In this document: positions 6,196 to 36,878 of the stretch, piece after piece
How the letters are laid out: each line of letters starts with the position of its first letter
Numbering within the stretch: position 1 is the stretch's first letter
From: Candidatus Hodarchaeota archaeon
GTDB taxonomy: Archaea; Asgardarchaeota; Heimdallarchaeia; Hodarchaeales; Hodarchaeaceae
Reading direction: 5' to 3'
Length of the DNA: 36,878 nucleotides
Assembly (NCBI GenBank): GCA_029856365.1
Contig: JAHQWW010000026.1
Coordinates: 1-36,878, forward strand
Translations under genes and position numbers: made by a program
Notes under the pieces: generated by a model
Databases searched by the model: none
What the model saw: only the letters and a program-made list of their open reading frames with translations
What the model was told of the DNA's origin: nothing

Positions 6196-7710
6196 TTAGG
6201 CGGATTCCTGAACAGGAATGAATATTTCAAAGAATGTACTTTTTTTATCTGATTGAACAGTAATATACCAACCATGAGCTTCGATTATTTTTCTCACAAT
6301 TGAAAGACCAAGGCCCATACTTTCCTTTTGGGTTGTAAAACCATAATTAAAGATTCGTTTTTGAATTTCAGGTGGAATTGGGATCCCATCATTGATGATA
6401 AGAATTTTCAAGAATTTTTCACCTTCCTCCAGCTTTATCATGATTTTATGGGGCTTGCCGTGAATTAAAGCATTCTCAAACAAGTTCTTAAAGACCTGAG
6501 CTAGTCTTTCTTGATCACATAGAATTGTTGGCAATTTATCATGAGTAAAGGCGATATTCTTAGGAATAATAGATTCGGCAACACTTTCAATCAGAAAGTT
6601 TAAATCTACATTTTTATCTTTTTTAATAGCTAATCCTGCATCCGCTAAAGTGAGAGAACGTGTCAATAAACTCTTCATATACTCGATTTGTTTGCTAATG
6701 ATGTGAGTCTCATCATATTCAAGATCAAGTAATTGAGTATAGCCTTCAATACTGGTTAAGCAGTTACTTAAATCATGAGCAATAAAATGTGCAAATTCAC
6801 TTAATTCTTCCTTTTGCCTTCTGAGTTTCTTCTCAACTTGCTTTAACCTTGTAATGTCAATTACTGAAACAATGATTTTTTCCAGAGTTTCTTCGTGACC
6901 AGAAACCACAGATAATCTTACAATGCAATCTATTTTTTCTCCTGTAAGTTTATATCCTGGAAATTCATTTTGATATGTAGTTTTACCATTAAAAAGTGCG
7001 ACCAGCTCCTCCTTGAATAAAGCTGTCGCTTCTTCATCGAAAAAAGAATCCAAACCTTCAAAAAACTCCGTTATATTTTTCGCTTTGTACAATTTCAATG
7101 TAGTGTAGTTAACATTTACTATCTTGACCATTTGTGAAAGCTTTTCTACTTCATGGGGATGATTGTCAAGATATTGGTGTAAATCGCTAATACCCTGGGT
7201 TTTTAGTTGGTCGAAATAACGTTTGACATCCGAGAAATCTTCCTCCCACAGGCTAACTGGTGATTCATCAAAGATGATCCTATATCTTTCCTCGCTTTCA
7301 ATTAAGGCCTTTTCCATTCGCTTGTGTTTGACTACTTGCTTAATAACATGACGGAGCTCCCCAAATTGACTCTCAGTATCGTAACTTTTCTCAATATAAT
7401 AGTTTGCTCCGAGGTTTAATGCATTGATTGCAACTTTTTCTCGGCCTCGACCGGTAAAAATAATGACTGGAATGTCAATCTTTTGATCCCTTAATTTGCT
7501 TAATAGTTCCAAGCCGTCCATACCAGGCATTTGATAATCTGTAACTATAACATCAAAGTTTTTCTCTTCTAATTGTTTAAAAACCTCCAATGATTCAGAA
7601 AGAGGATGAACATGTAGCTCATTATCCGCTATCATACTCATATACTTTTTTGTTAAATACAGAAAGCTTGGTTCATCGTCAACATGAAGCACATTTATTA
7701 CTTTTTCCAT
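6196..7710 (-). CDS. Hybrid REC-PAS-histidine kinase
   Basis: Receiver (VLHVDDE, TDYQMPGMDG), PAS (YRIIFDESPVSLWEED), H-box AHDLSN, N-box NLFENALIHG, DGIPIP, GLGLSIV. Confidence 0.93.
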   Translation of the reverse strand: MEKVINVLHVDDEPSFLYLTKKYMSMIADNELHVHPLSESLEVFKQLEEKNFDVIVTDYQMPGMDGLELLSKLRDQKIDIPVIIFTGRGREKVAINALNLGANYYIEKSYDTESQFGELRHVIKQVVKHKRMEKALIESEERYRIIFDESPVSLWEEDFSDVKRYFDQLKTQGISDLHQYLDNHPHEVEKLSQMVKIVNVNYTTLKLYKAKNITEFFEGLDSFFDEEATALFKEELVALFNGKTTYQNEFPGYKLTGEKIDCIVRLSVVSGHEETLEKIIVSVIDITRLKQVEKKLRRQKEELSEFAHFIAHDLSNCLTSIEGYTQLLDLEYDETHIISKQIEYMKSLLTRSLTLADAGLAIKKDKNVDLNFLIESVAESIIPKNIAFTHDKLPTILCDQERLAQVFKNLFENALIHGKPHKIMIKLEEGEKFLKILIINDGIPIPPEIQKRIFNYGFTTQKESMGLGLSIVRKIIEAHGWYITVQSDKKSTFFEIFIPVQESA

Positions 7711-22341: not shown

Positions 22342-25300
22342 TCATACTTGAGAATCTTTGTTATTTCTATAAAGTCTTGAAAAAGATTCGATTATTTTTG
22401 AAATCATTTCGCGAAGTTCAATTATTTTTAGGAAAATTGTCTTTTTATCTTCTGGTCTAGAGTCTAAGAGTTCATGGATTATCTTAATTCGTTCAAGGAT
22501 TATATCAGTGAATTGATCGACAATAGAAAAGTATGTAGGATAAATCAAGATACTCAAGGTTATATTTTCCTGTCTTCCACGAAACCGAGGACGATCTAAC
22601 GCAAAAGTAAATGCAAGAACTTTGATTATGGTTTTTTCATAGAGAGTGAAATTAAATACAGCTTGATTTATGCTGTTTAGATTAGCAACAAATTCACAAT
22701 TACTAAAAGAACGAAAAGCAATCTTATATAATACATTTGAATCCTTTTCTAATGATTTAGGAGTAATCATTATTGGTATTGGTCCCATACTTTCATCAAA
22801 AGTTGCTGTTACAATCCCGAGAGTATGTTTATTAAGAAGGGCTAATAGTTCAACATTACTAACTTGGTTGATGTTCTCCATCACCAAATTCCTATCAAGG
22901 CCAATTAATTCAGGTTTAAGGTCACTTCTCTTTATATAAATAAGAGAAACAACAACACTAGCAATAGTTAATGAAATAATAATTAAAAAGATGAGAAATA
23001 AAACAATGGAAGAAGGCATAACCCCCTCTGGAGTATAATAAAGTATTGGATTCCGTTCTGCTTGTTGGGGGTCAATCTGAAAAGCATTCTCATTTTTATT
23101 CCCATCTTTGTCAATTGTAGAAATGCGGTAAATCACATTCCAGCTTGTACCATTCAAAGAAAATGGAACAGTAACAGAATAAATAGCAGTATTCCCAGAT
23201 TTATTAAGAAATTCCATTCCCATTTGAAACCAGTGAACTTTTTTCTCTTGAAAGAAAGAGGAACCAATTCCTCCTCTATTCTCTCCATAATATACTTCTT
23301 CAAAATAATAATAAAGTGTTATTTCATCAATACCTGAGCCATATTCTTCAACTTCAGCATAAAAAATTAGACTAAATGGCTTTAACTTATCATTAAGAAC
23401 ATAAAAAGCGTTGTTAACACGCGGAGGAACAGTATCTTCAGCAATGAAGATAAGTGTAAATGATTTTGTAATGGTTTCTTTTTGTGAATAATTCAATAAC
23501 TCAGTAACTACTTTAATTTGGACAGTAATTTCTGCATTCAGATAAGTATAATCAGTTAGGTGAAAATCAAATACCCAGATATCTTCTGTACCATCTTTAG
23601 GAGAAGTCACAACGCCCTTTATTTGTGGATTACTTTTGTTGGAGATAATCACATATTGAATATATTTGATCTCGTTTCGTGGATCGGTTGTATTGATCTC
23701 CAGAGAATAATGGCCTTCCGTATCATTTTCTGGGATAATATTATGCTTATTAATCCTTGGTCTACTCTCTATGACCATGATTGAGGAAGTTTGATCCATC
23801 CCTTGATCTAATCCATCATATGGTTTAATGAGATAATACCAGCTTTCACCTGGTTGAGTAATATTTGCAGAGATTTGTGTTTGATTGGTATATTCAGGTT
23901 GTAAATCTCCATCTTTAAACCACCAAATGACTGATTGATCACGATCACCATCATTATCAATAAACCGATAATAACTTCTTTCAAGGATTATATCTTGATC
24001 TTCAATAATAAATTCAGGATGTTGATCTTTAAGGATGGTTATCATTGGAGGAGAATTAAGTACTACCACTGGACCAATTAATTCTGAAGAATTTATCATC
24101 TTACCAAATAGAACTCCATCTTTTGGTCTAATTGTTACATACCATAGATCATTTTTTACAAGAGCTGAGGAAGGGATCATTGTTTCATTATTATAATCAT
24201 TTTGGAGAACAAATCCCGTTCCATTATTCCTATACCACTTGATTTCGGTTCCTGATTCTGGATGGCCGTCTTCATCATAATAATCGTAAAAAAGCTCAAT
24301 TATTGAGCAACTAAATAATTTTAGGGGATTAATAATGATATTCTTTACAAAGGGAGCATGATTTATTGACACATAACCTGAATGTAAAGGAGATCGATAT
24401 TCATTGCCACTTGTATCATTAATAAATATCTGAAATTCCATGGGACCATTAGGGATCTCGAGAGTATCATTCTTATAAATAAAAATTTTGTTTCTAACAA
24501 TTGCAATGGGAACCATTGTGGCAACTAAGTTATAGGATGTAACATTCACGATAACTGTGTCTATTTCTCCCCAAGGATCTGTCACATTTGCTTTGAAAGT
24601 GTGGATATCAAGATAATATTCCCATTGAAGAACATCAGGAGGTAGAGTATCTTTATTAAATATGTTATACTTCATATTACTCTTCGATACTATCCAATTT
24701 CCATGTGCATCTGAAGCATTTACTACTTGATACTCACAATAATCACCAAAGTTTACCCAGGGACATTGATAGATCCACAATCCACTTGTATTTTCCTCCA
24801 TATCATATACAGAACCATTGATTTCAATCAATACTTTTGTAATTGGAGTTAAGTCATCTGTGACATTTGCATAGAATATGGGTTTCCCGTCACCTTTGTC
24901 CTCAACTCCTAAATCATTAATTTGGGGTGGATTTTTGTCCATTTCTTGAGGTCCGATCGAATAGAAGCTATTAGGATCATATTGATTATAAAACTCGGTT
25001 TCAATCCATGCAGCAGAACGTGCAACACTTGAGACACGGACTTCATCAATAGTACCATTAAAATAATTCCCCCTAACCATACCAAACTTCAGAGTCACTT
25101 TATTACCGATATTAAGATTAATAGAACGACTAATTTGAACTTCAGCACTTTTAGTTGCAATGCTTTTGCTATAAATTTTAATTATTGGGTCTTCATAAGT
25201 TATAACAAAGTAAACCCATTGATTGAGAGATGTAATCGCAAAATCGCTACTAAAACCTCCCCAATCTGTACTCCAGCTGTTGGGTAATGAACCAGTTTGA

Positions 25301-26193
25301 AGTGCCAGATATTTCATAGACGCGTGTTGCCCGAACTCAAAGATCCCTCCTTCATCGAAATCCTTGGTGTTAATCCACATACTAATCGTTTTTGGTCTTC
25401 TCCCATCCAATCCTAGTTCAAAGGGATATTTATAAGTATCAATATAGTCATCTATAGCGTCGAATTCATCAGCACCATCTATTTGGCCAATTGTTGCTTC
25501 ATCATTATCATAATCCTGGGGGCTACCATCTATATGATTTCTGGTTGAATCGTAACGTATTCCTGAAGTTTCTGAGAAATGCCAGACACTTACAAAATTT
25601 TCATCCCAGACATCTTCAGGAGTTTCTTGGTTCTCAATGTAAGGATTTCCATAATACATTGAAATGATAGTCTTGTGAGTGCTTGAAAGATTCATTTTAA
25701 CCCACGTGATTAAGTGAGAGTGGGTTGAATTATAGTCACGATTAAAATATTCGATTTCATAGTCTAGTTTATTGCCTAAAAAATCTGTGAAAATTATGTC
25801 ATTCCCATTTGCTTGAGCTACATTCTTTAAATCGGTATCATACAAATCTATCAAGACAGGAAAGGATGTTAAATTTTCGTATCCCTTTGAAGTGTGAACA
25901 GTAATTGATTTCCGAAATTGAAACCTTACGTCAGTCCACATAGAACCTGTTTCTGTCTTTTTATAACTAATAGAAGACTTCTCATTAGTATTTAGAAAGA
26001 GTGATCTTATATTATCTAAAGCCTCGTGATTTACTCTCTTTCCCAATCTTGTTTGACTCAATCTCCCTAACGTATTTATTTTCATATCTGATATGAATAT
26101 TTCTTCAAAATCCAATAATTCCGATGTGATTACAATATTAATAGATAAAGTTGTCAAGAAGAGAATTGTTATTATTCTCAGGGACTTTTTCAC
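22342..26193 (-). CDS. Large receptor-like membrane protein: signal/TM, DUF2341, LamG, Ig-like repeats, TM, cytoplasmic uDENN/longin-like domain
   Basis: N-terminal MKKSLR plus hydrophobic stretch. FPVLIDL..DIIFTD..LDYEIE..WVK..MYYGNP (DUF2341). FNGTIDEVRVS (LamG). DxxPP-linked beta modules. TM SIVLFLIFLIIISLTIASVVVSLIYI. Tail with FDESMGPIP and DRPRFRG. Confidence 0.85.
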   Translation of the reverse strand: MKKSLRIITILFLTTLSINIVITSELLDFEEIFISDMKINTLGRLSQTRLGKRVNHEALDNIRSLFLNTNEKSSISYKKTETGSMWTDVRFQFRKSITVHTSKGYENLTSFPVLIDLYDTDLKNVAQANGNDIIFTDFLGNKLDYEIEYFNRDYNSTHSHLITWVKMNLSSTHKTIISMYYGNPYIENQETPEDVWDENFVSVWHFSETSGIRYDSTRNHIDGSPQDYDNDEATIGQIDGADEFDAIDDYIDTYKYPFELGLDGRRPKTISMWINTKDFDEGGIFEFGQHASMKYLALQTGSLPNSWSTDWGGFSSDFAITSLNQWVYFVITYEDPIIKIYSKSIATKSAEVQISRSINLNIGNKVTLKFGMVRGNYFNGTIDEVRVSSVARSAAWIETEFYNQYDPNSFYSIGPQEMDKNPPQINDLGVEDKGDGKPIFYANVTDDLTPITKVLIEINGSVYDMEENTSGLWIYQCPWVNFGDYCEYQVVNASDAHGNWIVSKSNMKYNIFNKDTLPPDVLQWEYYLDIHTFKANVTDPWGEIDTVIVNVTSYNLVATMVPIAIVRNKIFIYKNDTLEIPNGPMEFQIFINDTSGNEYRSPLHSGYVSINHAPFVKNIIINPLKLFSCSIIELFYDYYDEDGHPESGTEIKWYRNNGTGFVLQNDYNNETMIPSSALVKNDLWYVTIRPKDGVLFGKMINSSELIGPVVVLNSPPMITILKDQHPEFIIEDQDIILERSYYRFIDNDGDRDQSVIWWFKDGDLQPEYTNQTQISANITQPGESWYYLIKPYDGLDQGMDQTSSIMVIESRPRINKHNIIPENDTEGHYSLEINTTDPRNEIKYIQYVIISNKSNPQIKGVVTSPKDGTEDIWVFDFHLTDYTYLNAEITVQIKVVTELLNYSQKETITKSFTLIFIAEDTVPPRVNNAFYVLNDKLKPFSLIFYAEVEEYGSGIDEITLYYYFEEVYYGENRGGIGSSFFQEKKVHWFQMGMEFLNKSGNTAIYSVTVPFSLNGTSWNVIYRISTIDKDGNKNENAFQIDPQQAERNPILYYTPEGVMPSSIVLFLIFLIIISLTIASVVVSLIYIKRSDLKPELIGLDRNLVMENINQVSNVELLALLNKHTLGIVTATFDESMGPIPIMITPKSLEKDSNVLYKIAFRSFSNCEFVANLNSINQAVFNFTLYEKTIIKVLAFTFALDRPRFRGRQENITLSILIYPTYFSIVDQFTDIILERIKIIHELLDSRPEDKKTIFLKIIELREMISKIIESFSRLYRNNKDSQV

Positions 26194-26768: not shown

Positions 26769-28463
26769 TTATTCCTCTTCATACTCAGAAAGAATTTTTT
26801 TTGCCTCTTTCAAGTAGATACGAAATTCCTCAATTTTCATTAAATCCTCAATTGATTTGGAAGGAATATCACTTAATCGCTGGTAAATCATTTTGACAAC
26901 AAGATTTTCCAGTTGTGCTAATTCAATCCTTCGAGTTAATGATGTGTTCTTATCAATGTACTCTTCCCATTTTTTCAACTGAGAGAAAAAGGAATAATGT
27001 TCAAAGCTGATAGAATCTGCTAATGTTTTCAGGCCTTTTTCCTCTGTTATAGCTTGAGCCTTAAATAGTAACTTCTGTGCATGTTGAATATCAAATTTTA
27101 ATAGAGAAAGCTTTGATTGCAACCAATAAGATTGCGCTAGTAATGAGTGAGAATTTTGTTCGATAGCGATCTTAAGTAATCGAGAACAGTAATGATCCAG
27201 TTCATTAAGAATTGTTTCATTACCTGTAATTTTCAATTCATAAAGAAGTAATTCACATAAATTAATAATGGCTTCAACTGTGACCTTATAGGCAATCTGA
27301 GGCTCTTTAGCTATTTCTTGAAATAACCTTAGAGCTTCCATTTTATCTGGTAACCTTTCACTTGTTTTCAGGAGAAGTGCTTTACTTGTTCGGTATATTA
27401 AATTGTACCAAATATTATTATCTTCCTTTTTCAGCTTTTTTAATTCTTTTATGAAAGGAATTGCCTCAGTGGGAGAAAGATGATACGTATAAAGGCGAAT
27501 CAGATAGTATAAGCCATCAACTAAATAAAAAGAAGCCTTTTTTTCCTTAGCTATATTTAGGGCTTTTTTATAACATTCTAATGAGGTTTGAAACTCCCCT
27601 CGATCCTGTAATAATCTACCGAGGTCGTAAAGTCCCAGAATTATATTAACAGTAAAATCAATTGACTCAGCTAGTTTTAGAGACTTAGTAATAAAACTCT
27701 CTGCTGATTCTAACTCTCCTTGGAAATAATATATTTCACCTAAATGAAGTAAATTGTGAGAGATATCACACTTATTCTTAATACTCTCCGATAAAGCAAG
27801 AGCTCGCTTTGTATAATCTCTCGCAAGGTTAAATTCCCCTCTTAACAGATAGATATTCCCTATAGCACGATATGCCTGGGAAATAAGATATTTATTCCCA
27901 GTTTTTTCTCCAAGATCTAGACTCTCATTGAAAAATTTCAATGCAAAACTATGGTTTCCCTTATAGTAATAATAATTTCCCAATCCAAATAATGCCTCAC
28001 TCATACCCAGCTTATCGTCAACTTCTTCTCTAAGCGATAAACTTTCTTGAATTAATGGTAATTGTTTGTTTGATTCGACATTAGGATCGAATGAAGTTGC
28101 TTTCAAGAAAAGAAGAGTTGCTTTTTTGCACTTATACTCTTTTGACCCTTTATCCAATATCTGATTGAGAAAAATTTCCCCCTCATTAAGCAGTCTCTTG
28201 GTCTCATTTCTTGTTTCAGCCATTAAAGAAATCCTGAGTAAAATAAAGAGGGCATTCAATCCAAATATAACATTTTGAGATTTTTTACTTTGGTTAAATA
28301 GTTGAAGTGACATCTCCTTGGCTTTAGCTAATTCTCCAAGATTAAGATAACAAATACTCTTCAAATATAACACTTTCAATTGAGTGTTTCCATCTAATCT
28401 ATCTAGAGGTTCAACCATAATAAGATACCTTGATGCTTCATCATAATTCTCCTGATTGATCAA
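26769..28463 (-). CDS. Tetratricopeptide repeat protein
   Basis: About 40-aa repeats such as ALFGLGNYYYYKGN, AYRAIGNIYLLRGE, LLHLGEIYYFQGE, LYDLGRLLQDRGE. Frame open further upstream (CTG 28493). Confidence 0.9.
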   Translation of the reverse strand: MINQENYDEASRYLIMVEPLDRLDGNTQLKVLYLKSICYLNLGELAKAKEMSLQLFNQSKKSQNVIFGLNALFILLRISLMAETRNETKRLLNEGEIFLNQILDKGSKEYKCKKATLLFLKATSFDPNVESNKQLPLIQESLSLREEVDDKLGMSEALFGLGNYYYYKGNHSFALKFFNESLDLGEKTGNKYLISQAYRAIGNIYLLRGEFNLARDYTKRALALSESIKNKCDISHNLLHLGEIYYFQGELESAESFITKSLKLAESIDFTVNIILGLYDLGRLLQDRGEFQTSLECYKKALNIAKEKKASFYLVDGLYYLIRLYTYHLSPTEAIPFIKELKKLKKEDNNIWYNLIYRTSKALLLKTSERLPDKMEALRLFQEIAKEPQIAYKVTVEAIINLCELLLYELKITGNETILNELDHYCSRLLKIAIEQNSHSLLAQSYWLQSKLSLLKFDIQHAQKLLFKAQAITEEKGLKTLADSISFEHYSFFSQLKKWEEYIDKNTSLTRRIELAQLENLVVKMIYQRLSDIPSKSIEDLMKIEEFRIYLKEAKKILSEYEEE

Positions 28464-32768: not shown

Positions 32769-33692
32769 TCATTTTTTTTGGTGCGTTTCAAGGAGTTCAT
32801 CAGTAAAATCAGGATAATAACGGATACTACCTCCAACTAGATGGGATGTTGTTTGTATATCTGGCACCTTACTCAGAACATCTTCTTGTATAGATTTTAC
32901 TTCATCTACGTTTTCAGCTTGGAAAGCAAGAATAATAATTGGTCGGTCAACAACCTGCCAACTAACCCAAAAATGATCTGGTCTAGTTCTTCGGATCTCA
33001 TTATCAATGCTTACACGATTCTGTCGTGTCAATTTATTGAGTTCAACCAAAATAAGAACCATCATTCCTCTTGAAATCTTCCCAGGATTTAACTGAATGG
33101 TTAATCTTATCATGTTTCGTTCTTGTAATGATTTAAGTCTCTTTCTAATTGTTTTTACACTAATATGGGTCTTCTTGGATAACTCACTTAAAGTGATTCT
33201 CCCATTCTCTCGCAAATGCGAGAGTATAGACCAATCTAATCTCTTAATGTCGCTCAATGTTCCCATGGGAGACAACTGGTCGGCTGTCAACGGTAATAGT
33301 ACTGGAAAGATGGAGACTTCTCTTATTTTATCAACAGAATGAAAAACATCCGAGAGAAGACTTATTTCTGTATGATTTCTATAAAAGCCAATAGCGAATC
33401 CTGCCTCAACTCCAGCTCCGATACCTGTTACTAATGGATGCATTCCTAGTTGATTTATCAGGTTTTCACTAGGTTGATTGTGAAATTTAAATAAAATAAG
33501 TACTGTATTAGCGTTCATAAGGGAGGGATTGAATTCAAAAGTAAATCTTTCAATGATTCCTTTCTCTTCCAAAATACGAACTCTATTTTTTATTGTGTTT
33601 GCGCTTACATTATGTTTTTGGGCTAGATGAGAGTATGAAATACGACAATCATTACTTAACTCCATTAAGATTTGTTTATCCAAGAGATCCAT
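32769..33692 (-). CDS. Tandem (double) Lrp/AsnC family regulator
   Basis: Two HTH-RAM units: MDLLDKQILMELSNDCRISY and LDWSILSHLRENGRITL. Confidence 0.9.
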   Translation of the reverse strand: MDLLDKQILMELSNDCRISYSHLAQKHNVSANTIKNRVRILEEKGIIERFTFEFNPSLMNANTVLILFKFHNQPSENLINQLGMHPLVTGIGAGVEAGFAIGFYRNHTEISLLSDVFHSVDKIREVSIFPVLLPLTADQLSPMGTLSDIKRLDWSILSHLRENGRITLSELSKKTHISVKTIRKRLKSLQERNMIRLTIQLNPGKISRGMMVLILVELNKLTRQNRVSIDNEIRRTRPDHFWVSWQVVDRPIIILAFQAENVDEVKSIQEDVLSKVPDIQTTSHLVGGSIRYYPDFTDELLETHQKK

Positions 33693-35353: not shown

Positions 35354-36878
35354 TTATTTAGATGAAGAAGATCGATGTCGTACTAATCTTCTTGTAATAA
35401 GTATCAAACCAATTGATCCAAAGAGAGTACCTAAAACTAATCCGATATTTAGTTCTCCCAGTGGTGTTATTCCATGAGTATCCTCTGATACATCAGTTAA
35501 CGATTCGCTTTCAACACTAGATAATTCTTGTTGGTTAGAAGTTTGTTCTGAAGAGATTTCTGTGGTTTCTTTCTCATAAGTAAAAAATACAAATTGAGTA
35601 CTAACCCAGTTCCCTGCTGTGTCGTTAGCATATACATATAATACATGTTGACCATCTCCCTCTGGTATAAGTGTTTCAAATGAAATCCATGTGACATTTT
35701 GACATCCGTCCCAATTGTAAACAACTCTATCAAGATGAGAATCGTTAAGTTCTAGAGTGATTAATGTACCTAAAGGCAATACACTCATGTTTTGGTATTC
35801 TAATAACGTAATTCTTGGTTCAATGTCGTCTGTTATGAAAATGAACACATTATTTGTCCAATGACCAAAACTATCATTAGCAAAAATATAGAGAGTATGA
35901 TGACCCTCATCATCAGGCAATATAACTGTATTAGAAGAGATTAAAGAACTATTCTGAGTTTTATCCCAGTTGTAGAGTACAGTATCAAGATTTATATCAG
36001 TTACATTTAATTTAATTTCAAAACCAGATGTTAATACACTATAATTTTCTGGAATCAAAAGAGAAATTTTTGGTGGAAAATTGTCTGTAAATGCCTCAAC
36101 TGTGAAAGTTATTGAAACGTGAACTTTATTCCCAGCTGAATCATTCCCATATGCGTGTAGTGTGTAAGTACCATTATCAAGGACATAATATATAGGACTA
36201 GTGTCAACACTCCATGTTCGGTTCTTAGTATCAATATTATTGATATAATACCAGATATAATCAGCGTTACCTGACAAAGAGATCATTATTATATCAGTTG
36301 AGTAGGTTTCATTTGTTGGAGACTCAATAGTGACTAGGGGTAGTGTGGTGTCAACTGTAAACCATTCTTGACCATAGGCTTTATTTCCCACACTATCATT
36401 GAAAAAGACTTGTACAGAATAACTGCCATCTAGCCATGTTAATCCTTCTACTACCCACCTTTATTTATCAGAATCAAATAACAGGGTATAATTATTTGAC
36501 CAGGATCCATTCATATACCTGTACCAAGCAGTATGAACAACACTTGAATTTAATGCATAAATCGATATTTCAGAATTTGAATAAGTGCTATTTGTTGGTG
36601 AATTAATAGTAACTATAGGTGGCGTTGTATCTATAAAAATAACTACCAGATCAGCTTTACTTTGATTTTTTTCGTCAAATGCGACAATTCTGTAACAATG
36701 CCATCCCTCAGGTTGATCATTTAATGTTAAGCTTGTTTCTGTTGTTGTTTCTAGATAGATTCCATCTCTAAATATTGCATACTTCTCTATTCCATAATCA
36801 TCATTCCCAGTCCATGAAAACGATGGATTCTCATTTGTTGTCGATCCATTTGTTGGATTTTTTGCAGAAGTGCTTGAA
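35354..36878 (-). pseudogene. Ig-like repeat cell-surface glycoprotein with C-terminal TM anchor, split by in-frame TAA (36461-36463); 5' end outside the window
   Basis: One frame from the window edge: ...IDTTPPIVTINSPTN...LFDSDK*RWVVEGLTWLDGSYSVQVFFNDSVGNK, continuing into the tracked 345-aa ORF. Repeated DxxxP.V/I....P.N and G.Y/H.L.vyANDsaGN modules, Ser/Thr/Glu linker, TM, basic tail. Confidence 0.8.

Follow-up and report, generated by a model that had tools for sequence, protein, structure and literature searches.

We analysed a stretch of 36,878 nucleotides (hereafter the window; contig JAHQWW010000026.1 of GenBank assembly GCA_029856365.1, Candidatus Hodarchaeota archaeon, Asgardarchaeota) and consider here one of its genes, which lies at 22342..26193 on the minus strand and is a single open reading frame of 1,283 amino acids (aa) with a GTG start and the stop codon at 22342-22344. 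The evidence discussed below points to a type I single-pass membrane protein (N-terminus outside and C-terminus inside, Nout-Cin), in which a large ectodomain is followed by one transmembrane helix and a tail that is predicted to be cytoplasmic. The predicted fold of the tail, a GP motif and a loop arginine support its assignment to the longin domains of the FLCN, NPRL2 and SMCR8 type, that is, the type of the GTPase-activating proteins (GAPs). The protein is one of 8-10 membrane-anchored paralogues of this genome, which carry the same tail on different ectodomains, and it may couple GTPase switches to the cell surface in organisms closely related to the eukaryotes. An original prediction had described it as a receptor-like surface protein with a cytoplasmic uDENN (longin) domain of the folliculin/SMCR8 kind; the sequence observations of that prediction are confirmed with small corrections of length and its interpretation is supported, the functional coupling to a GTPase being the part that we infer.

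Fold and conserved motifs of the tail

The tail comprises the 196 aa that follow the transmembrane helix (aa 1088-1283; roughly 190 aa had been predicted), and the strings FDESMGPIPI (nt 22771-22800) and LDRPRFRGRQE (nt 22567-22599) are read in it. Modelled with AlphaFold2 (AF2) on alignment A1, which holds 100 homologous tails, it is predicted with a local distance difference test score (pLDDT) of 91.2 and a template modelling score (pTM) of 0.86 as two juxtamembrane helices followed by strands (b) and helices (a) in the order b-b-a-b-b-b-a-a, which is the longin order. The two short juxtamembrane helices (tail residues 14-23 and 26-36, pLDDT >90) lie in a segment at aa 1088-1123 (22825..22932; this and all further features of the gene are on the minus strand) that bears a conserved E-L-x-G-L-D motif, the juxtamembrane tail residues G11 and D13 being kept in 93-94% of the 100 tails. 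The longin core, b1-b2-a1-b3-b4-b5-a2, was placed by the AF2 model and the fold searches at aa 1124-1245 (22459..22824). The strands are at tail residues 37-46, 50-57, 88-97, 101-113 and 121-130 and the helices at 59-79, 132-158 and 163-194, the last of them being the long C-terminal helix at aa 1250-1281 (22351..22446). In the model, the GP motif (G1137-P1138, tail residues 50 and 51; 22780..22785) stands at the b1/b2 junction, at the start of b2, and R1205 (tail residue 118; 22579..22581, within RPRFRGRQEN), a candidate arginine finger, stands in the loop of residues 114-120 between b4 and b5.

The tail model was compared by VIA-align with 48,161 PDB representative chains, where the subunit identity of the matched chains is taken from entry titles and chain lengths alone. 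The first rank is 8yqg_B, the longin domain of a Lokiarchaeota Roadblock-Longin protein (Z 14.0, 141 residues aligned, root-mean-square deviation (rmsd) 2.9). It is followed by 6nzd_H from the folliculin complex FLCN-FNIP2 (Z 12.0, 135 aligned, rmsd 2.6), 7o2w_A from C9orf72-SMCR8 (Z 11.4), 4zy8_C, the Lst4 longin (Z 11.2), 8fw5_B from GATOR1 (Z 10.7), 6lt0_B from C9ORF72-SMCR8-WDR41 (Z 10.6), 8adl_S from the SEA complex (Z 10.0), 6ulg_N from FLCN-FNIP2-Rag-Ragulator (Z 9.7) and 6ekk_A, DENND1A (Z 9.1). Various chains of the TRAPP, COPI-zeta, AP-sigma, VAMP7, Sec22 and SRP receptor longins have Z 6.6-8.3, those of TRAPP, COPI-zeta, AP-sigma and VAMP7 (Z 6.8-8.3) standing below the chains of the GAP complexes. 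Foldseek returns the same set with the same ranking (E 1e-4 to 1e-2, probability 1.00). The longin fold that had been predicted for the tail is thus found by structure prediction and by both searches, with an Asgard longin and chains of the FLCN, SMCR8, Lst4 and GATOR1 entries as nearest structures; sequence identity to the solved longins that VIA-align matched is 6-14%. When the tail was co-folded with a second copy of itself on A1, the score stayed below the mark, and we draw no conclusion on dimerisation from it.

The motifs are strongly conserved. Across A1, in which the tails are 25-63% pairwise identical to that of the window, tail residues F45, G50, P53, P58, F76, R118 and R174 are invariant, P51 is kept in 99%, and D46, Q47, P51, G119, G120, E122 and N123 are at least 90% conserved. 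R1205 is conserved in 100% of the 100 tails, with a glycine next to it in 91%, and so both the F-x4-GP hairpin and the later RG arginine noted in the original prediction are invariant or near-invariant across the family. Note also that R1261 (tail residue 174; 22411-22413), in the C-terminal helix, is a second invariant arginine, present in 100% of the 100 tails. In the eukaryotic proteins, the arginines for comparison with R1205 are R164 of FLCN, R78 of NPRL2 and R147 of SMCR8. According to PMC12290439, FLCN, NPRL2, SMCR8 and C9orf72 have in common a GP motif where the loop meets b2, together with a loop arginine; the pair is reported to be missing in the FNIP2, NPRL3, DENND, TRAPP and adaptin longins and to occur in some Asgard longins. 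Based on its modelled fold, its GP motif and its loop arginine, the assignment of the tail as a longin domain of the FLCN/NPRL2/SMCR8 (GAP) type is supported. It is noted that of the uDENN claim the longin (uDENN) part stands; cDENN and dDENN domains are absent, the protein ending after the helices of the longin, about 150 aa from b1 to the C-terminus, and the tail itself lies under every Pfam threshold.

A link to folliculin also appears at the level of sequence. Scanned singly, 29 of the 100 tails match PF11704 (Folliculin) below threshold with a best E of 1.9e-4, the next family being matched by 6; two paralogue tails reach 16.6-17.2 bits versus the cut-off of 23.3, and the gathering threshold is reached neither by the window tail nor by the 29 matching tails. 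A soluble 443-aa protein of the same genome (G000:C9; L009:1998-3329, minus strand) passes PF11704 at E 5.9e-7 and has GP and DPKARG motifs. The alignment of A1 with this protein by hhalign has a probability of 80.7% and E 1.3e-5, with RPEARGG aligned on DPKARGK, and R1205 aligns with the ARG motif of this protein as well as with the longin-Rag fusions described below. Moreover, profile A3, which mixes tails with soluble Asgard longins and in which the G, the P and the R are invariant, recovers by sequence the complete longin domain of 8yqg (E 0.0015), its other matches being mostly designed helical bundles and coiled coils; profile A1 finds no longin chain among the PDB sequences. For the soluble PF11704-positive protein, the search of the PDB sequences gives a BBS5-like stretch only (aa 247-300; 6xtb_E, E 0.0025). 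A gene with weak likeness to Roadblock/LC7 (E 0.008; L009:3838-4332, minus strand) lies just upstream of the gene of this protein.

Membrane topology, ectodomains and family

By hydropathy, the strong hydrophobic segments of the window protein are two, at aa 4-27 and aa 1063-1087, with one marginal window at aa 547-566 just above threshold (maximum 1.67 versus 1.6). The first lies in a signal-like N-terminal segment (aa 1-27; 26113..26193) made of a KK..R n-region and a hydrophobic core, and the orthologues P0002, P0003 and P0006 have the same basic-then-hydrophobic start. The second is the single transmembrane helix (22933..23007; Kyte-Doolittle maximum 3.15), which is followed by KRSDLKPE and had been predicted at about nt 22935-23010. 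In 107 family proteins, the 15 residues after the helix hold on average 2.8 K+R versus 1.5 in those before it. The density of N-x-S/T sequons per 100 aa is 2.2 in the ectodomain versus 1.0 in the tail. Because of the signal-like N-terminus, the single helix, the positive charge on its tail side and the sequon density, the protein is most readily understood as Nout-Cin; hydropathy, charge bias and sequon density all put the tail inside the cell and not outside it.

It could be argued that the tail resembles the longins by convergence at the level of the fold only, or that it is extracellular, and that it has no relation to GTPase regulation. This argument would draw on the identity of 6-14% to the solved longins and on a topology that is read from hydropathy and charge, but we find it hardly credible. 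Against it stand the concentration of the sub-threshold Folliculin matches in one family, the sequence match of A3 to 8yqg along the entire domain, and the single helix, which comes after a signal-like N-terminus and has K/R towards the tail.

The ectodomain is present as predicted, with its length corrected from roughly 1050 aa to ~1,035 aa. Two of its domains, both named in the original prediction, lie above the Pfam gathering thresholds, namely DUF2341 at aa 129-216 (25546..25809; PF10102, E=1.5e-5, 25.8 bits versus a cut-off of 23.4) and a LamG, or concanavalin-A-like, lectin fold at aa 266-397 (25003..25398; PF13385, Laminin_G_3, E=1.8e-9, 38.3 bits versus 27.6). Of the predicted Ig-like modules, one is borne out, at aa ~419-515 (24649..24939), where the model is an FN3/Ig-like beta-sandwich (pLDDT 74-90) that resembles FN3, CBM56, SiiE BIg and PKD domains (VIA-align Z 8.4-10.4, 79-94 residues aligned). 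This is the sole confident stretch in the AF2 model of aa 410-1062, which was built on just four homologues and is all-beta with a mean pLDDT of 44, and elsewhere in the ectodomain an Ig-like character is plausible. The two predicted repeats of the Y..D.DG...W...WY..I.P.DG type were located by regular expression on the translation at aa 636-693 (24115..24288) and aa 742-794 (23812..23970).

In a phmmer search of 1.84 billion representative proteins, the tail has 126 matches at E<=1e-3 and 111 at E<=1e-10, and thus the feature is not due to chance. In every full-length match (proteins of about 300 to 5,809 aa) the tail is at the extreme C-terminus, and a strong transmembrane segment immediately precedes it in 94 of 100 representatives (>=300 aa). 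The ectodomains vary, with DUF2341 plus one to three LamG domains in some, Big-like domains in others and many having no Pfam match, which means that the same tail is joined to many different ectodomains. The named close homologues are Hodarchaeales proteins, annotated as LamG-like and nothing more. The present genome (4.24 Mb in 204 contigs, 84% complete) holds 8-10 membrane-anchored copies; the open frames that end in them measure about 960-2,971 aa, contig ends truncating several. The tail directly follows a transmembrane helix in every anchored copy, and three copies stand in tandem on contig C52. Over the phylum, the tail is matched in 139 of 399 genomes. The genus of the window has a match in 20 of its 21 genomes, at E about 1e-85 and usually with several copies, the longest open frame having 10,431 aa; in two further families of the class, matches at about 1e-20 end frames of about 1,500 aa; and the matches in other Asgard classes are weaker (1e-13 to 1e-4) and are soluble proteins wherever inspected.

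Two side observations concern unusual copies. In sister genomes the tail ends open frames of 10,431, 10,069 and 8,857 aa (tails at G075:C193:39670-40227, G070:C10:124864-125424 and G074:C52:42079-42636), which puts these genes with the largest of the archaea; in the present genome, their homologue on C52 leaves the contig end at 2,971 aa. The present genome also has a soluble stand-alone tail copy of 184 aa (G000:C49:5479-6030, the same as L011:2980-3534, plus strand), with no transmembrane helix, with the GP kept (HETGPIP) and with the RG arginine lost. Elsewhere it is matched best by tails of giant receptors of the C52 type (41-50% identity). A role of this copy as a conserved FNIP-like partner was considered and is rejected, because the stand-alone form is confined to this genome, none of the 21 genomes of the genus having a stand-alone orthologue, and because it is most closely related to receptor tails. 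It may have arisen by a recent duplication of a fragment, or may serve as a decoy in regulation.

Proteins of such size bring up the alternative that the family is mainly a structural adhesin or envelope component, the tail of which would tether it to a scaffold in the cytoplasm, such as the cytoskeleton or machinery for membrane remodelling, with no signalling. The members of up to 5,809 aa in the database and the open frames of 8,800-10,431 aa in sister genomes would fit with this, as would the repetitive ectodomains like those of giant adhesins, the many paralogues per genome and the lack of an adjoining signalling gene at the window copy. We nevertheless give this alternative a small chance, since it leaves unexplained the GP/Arg signature, the enrichment of Rag genes near the sister genes and the longin-GTPase fusions, to which we now turn.

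Small GTPases and the predicted role of the tail

Outside Heimdallarchaeia, the nearest relatives of the tail appear from the profile search to be soluble longin-Rag and longin-Ras fusions, which match the tail profile at E 3.4e-13 to 9e-13. The GP/RG longin is N-terminal to a Gtr1/RagA-type GTPase in two proteins of 469 and 476 aa (L002:1486-2895 and L004:1450-2880, both plus strand; GTPase E 2.4e-20 and 3.1e-24), to a Ras-family GTPase in a protein of 355 aa (L003:877-1944, minus strand; GTPase E 1e-45) and to a winged-helix domain in a protein of 236 aa (L005:1159-1869, minus strand). The fusions with GTPases are the strongest argument that this type of longin probably works with small GTPases.

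Separate GTPase genes are also found near some of the genes that bear the tail and support the link in part. In five well-assembled sister genomes, 9 of the 35 tail-bearing genes lie within 10 kb of a match to Rag-family GTPases, where the density of these genes (a set of 40 matches at E<=1.3e-19) predicts about 1.2. In two pairs the Rag gene follows only 84 bp downstream of the tail gene (G069:C4, 67067-67639 with 66408-66983, and G070:C1, 24561-25133 with 25217-25792). Orthologue P0006, which has the same architecture as the window protein and a tail 57% identical to it, has 600 bp downstream, in convergent orientation, the gene of a 316-aa Arf-family GTPase (E 5.8e-33; L013:14412-15362, minus strand). 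Also at this locus are a V4R (TRAPPC3-related) gene directly upstream of P0006 (L013:8731-9636, plus strand) and a YbjN-like gene downstream of it (L013:13968-14393, plus strand). In the present genome, a cluster on another contig (G000:C96:26000-40000; L010) includes three genes that clearly encode GTPases of the Gtr1/RagA type (300, 334 and 309 aa; E 3e-20 to 8e-36), while a fourth is degenerate. The cluster also has a CBS-domain gene and encodes a soluble protein of 357 aa with a weak N-terminal match to the tail profile (E 4.4e-5), and its members are candidate partners of the receptor tails in this genome. A further pair of Rag-type GTPases of the genome is on C12.

From the architecture, the fold, the motif conservation, the inside-facing topology signals and the distribution of the family, we infer the following mechanism. 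With the ectodomain of DUF2341, LamG and beta-sandwich modules outside and the longin tail inside, ~35 residues from the membrane, the tail would dock a small GTPase of the Rag, Arf or Ras kind at the inner membrane face. GTP hydrolysis would then be stimulated through the loop arginine R1205 beside the GP motif, as in FLCN, NPRL2 and SMCR8, and a ligand of the lectin-like ectodomain (a glycan, a surface or a partner cell) would determine at which place, or if at all, the GTPase is turned off; the tails may cluster or pair in the process. That the tail docks such a GTPase, most likely as a GAP acting via R1205, under the control of the ectodomain, has in our estimation about an even chance of being right.

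Several points weigh against this mechanism. No small GTPase or roadblock gene is present in the window or on any contig of the genome that carries a paralogue, and the syntenic context of orthologue P0003 also has no GTPase gene. The nine Rag-adjacent genes make up roughly 4-5 orthologous groups, and their adjacencies are therefore not independent events; besides, the size class that resembles the window gene is not among them. The window tail has no Pfam or NCBIfam match even at E<=1, and searches of the PDB sequences with A1 or A3 reach no chain of FLCN, NPRL2 or SMCR8. In 8yqg the GP is present and no arginine stands at the position aligned with R1205, and thus fold and GP alone do not imply GAP activity. 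Eukaryotic GAP longins are heterodimers with DENN domains, and no conserved partner subunit of the FNIP, NPRL3 or C9orf72 type was identified for the tail. We know of no biochemical activity for any member of the tail family.

The main alternative is that the longin tail is a non-catalytic platform, which either docks a GTPase in the manner of a guanine nucleotide exchange factor (GEF) or an effector, or recruits longin or roadblock proteins so as to position, sort or cluster the receptor. The conserved arginine would then serve binding or folding and not catalysis. Longins are mostly GEF platforms or adaptors and not GAPs (PMC10933270), the top structural match lacks the arginine, a GEF such as DENND1A still has Z 9.1, one relative has the same longin fused to a winged-helix domain and not to a GTPase, and the invariance of R1261 in the last helix indicates that invariance need not mean catalysis. 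By contrast, the pair of the GP and the loop arginine is reported as specific to GAP longins (PMC12290439), the arginine is kept in all 100 tails, which are 25-63% identical to the window tail, and the chains of GAP complexes rank above the GEF and adaptor longins in the structural comparison. On these grounds we consider the non-catalytic platform somewhat unlikely.

Returning to the tail as a predicted GAP under ectodomain control, we note that a wider proposal can be made, namely that Heimdallarchaeia have outside-in receptors in which a ligand or a cell contact, bound by the lectin/adhesin ectodomain, controls a membrane-anchored folliculin-like GAP and hence the nucleotide state of Rag or Arf. 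As a whole this proposal is unlikely. On lysosomes, Rag and Arf GTPases are controlled by folliculin, GATOR1 and C9orf72-SMCR8, regulators whose origin is an unsettled matter in eukaryogenesis. If the receptor reading is true, the Rag-longin nutrient switch of eukaryotes would have started out at the plasma membrane of archaea and moved inside, to lysosomes, at a later time, and if the activity is true, archaea would possess single-pass receptors with a small GTPase as their signalling route. A longin tail at the inner membrane face behind large and variable lectin-like ectodomains indicates where such a switch could act in an archaeon, and the members that adjoin Rag-type GTPase genes are defined protein pairs for in vitro work.

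As for the surroundings of the gene, the window is AT-rich everywhere (GC 0.32-0.37). A gene of a 564-aa TPR-repeat protein (26769-28463, minus strand) precedes the receptor gene by 575 bp and shares its strand; the genes listed at the P0006 locus do not include it, and the P0003 contig starts about 0.8 kb upstream of the receptor orthologue. At 35354-36391 (minus strand) the window encodes another surface-type protein, with Big_13/Big_3_4 Ig-like domains, and the next open reading frame, at 36461-36877 (minus strand), runs off the window. A 504-aa hybrid response-regulator/histidine-kinase (6196-7710, minus strand) and a 307-aa protein with two AsnC-type helix-turn-helix modules (32769-33692, minus strand) are ordinary regulators with no evident link to the receptor.

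Comparison with known systems

The nearest eukaryotic system for comparison is folliculin (PF11704), which acts as a RagC/D GAP in FLCN-FNIP and has its yeast counterpart in Lst7-Lst4. The tail shares with FLCN the longin fold as modelled, the GP at b1/b2 and the Arg-Gly in the b4-b5 loop. It differs in that it is anchored by its own transmembrane helix behind an ectodomain of ~1,035 aa and in that no DENN domain follows the longin; furthermore, the window tail is under the PF11704 threshold, an FNIP-like partner is known for FLCN and not for the tail, and the GAP role of the tail is a predicted one. Because there is no DENN domain, the Pfam threshold is missed and no partner subunit was identified, the window protein is not a full member of the FLCN/SMCR8 family. 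NPRL2 (in GATOR1) and SMCR8 (in C9orf72-SMCR8-WDR41) likewise have the fold in common with the tail (Z 10.7 and 11.4 for chains of 8fw5 and 7o2w) as well as the logic of a GP with an arginine finger, but they are soluble subunits of large heteromeric lysosomal complexes.

Among archaeal proteins, the soluble Asgard longins with the GP/Arg pair (PMC12290439) share with the tail the two motifs, the fold and a bias to Heimdallarchaeia, and the PF11704-positive 443-aa protein is such a protein in the present genome; what the present family adds is that large ectodomains are fused to the longin, as in a receptor. The Lokiarchaeota Roadblock-Longin 8yqg, which ranks first by structure and alone among the chains matched by sequence is a solved longin domain, has the GP in common with the tail, whereas it is soluble, is fused to a roadblock and does not have the arginine. 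The Asgard longin-GTPase fusions, known in longin-Rag-roadblock and longin-Rab architectures (PMC10933270), carry the same GP/RG longin by profile search and alignment; in them, longin and GTPase are covalently joined and soluble, whereas here the longin goes with a transmembrane helix and an ectodomain, and any GTPase would come from a separate gene. The word 'transmembrane' is absent from the main texts of PMC12290439 and PMC10933270, and no description of a membrane-anchored longin architecture was found in the literature on longin and Asgard or Heimdallarchaeia with the words transmembrane, receptor or membrane-anchored. Thus, compared with the known systems, soluble GP/Arg Asgard longins (2025) and longin-GTPase fusions were known already, and the membrane-anchored, receptor-like form appears to be new.

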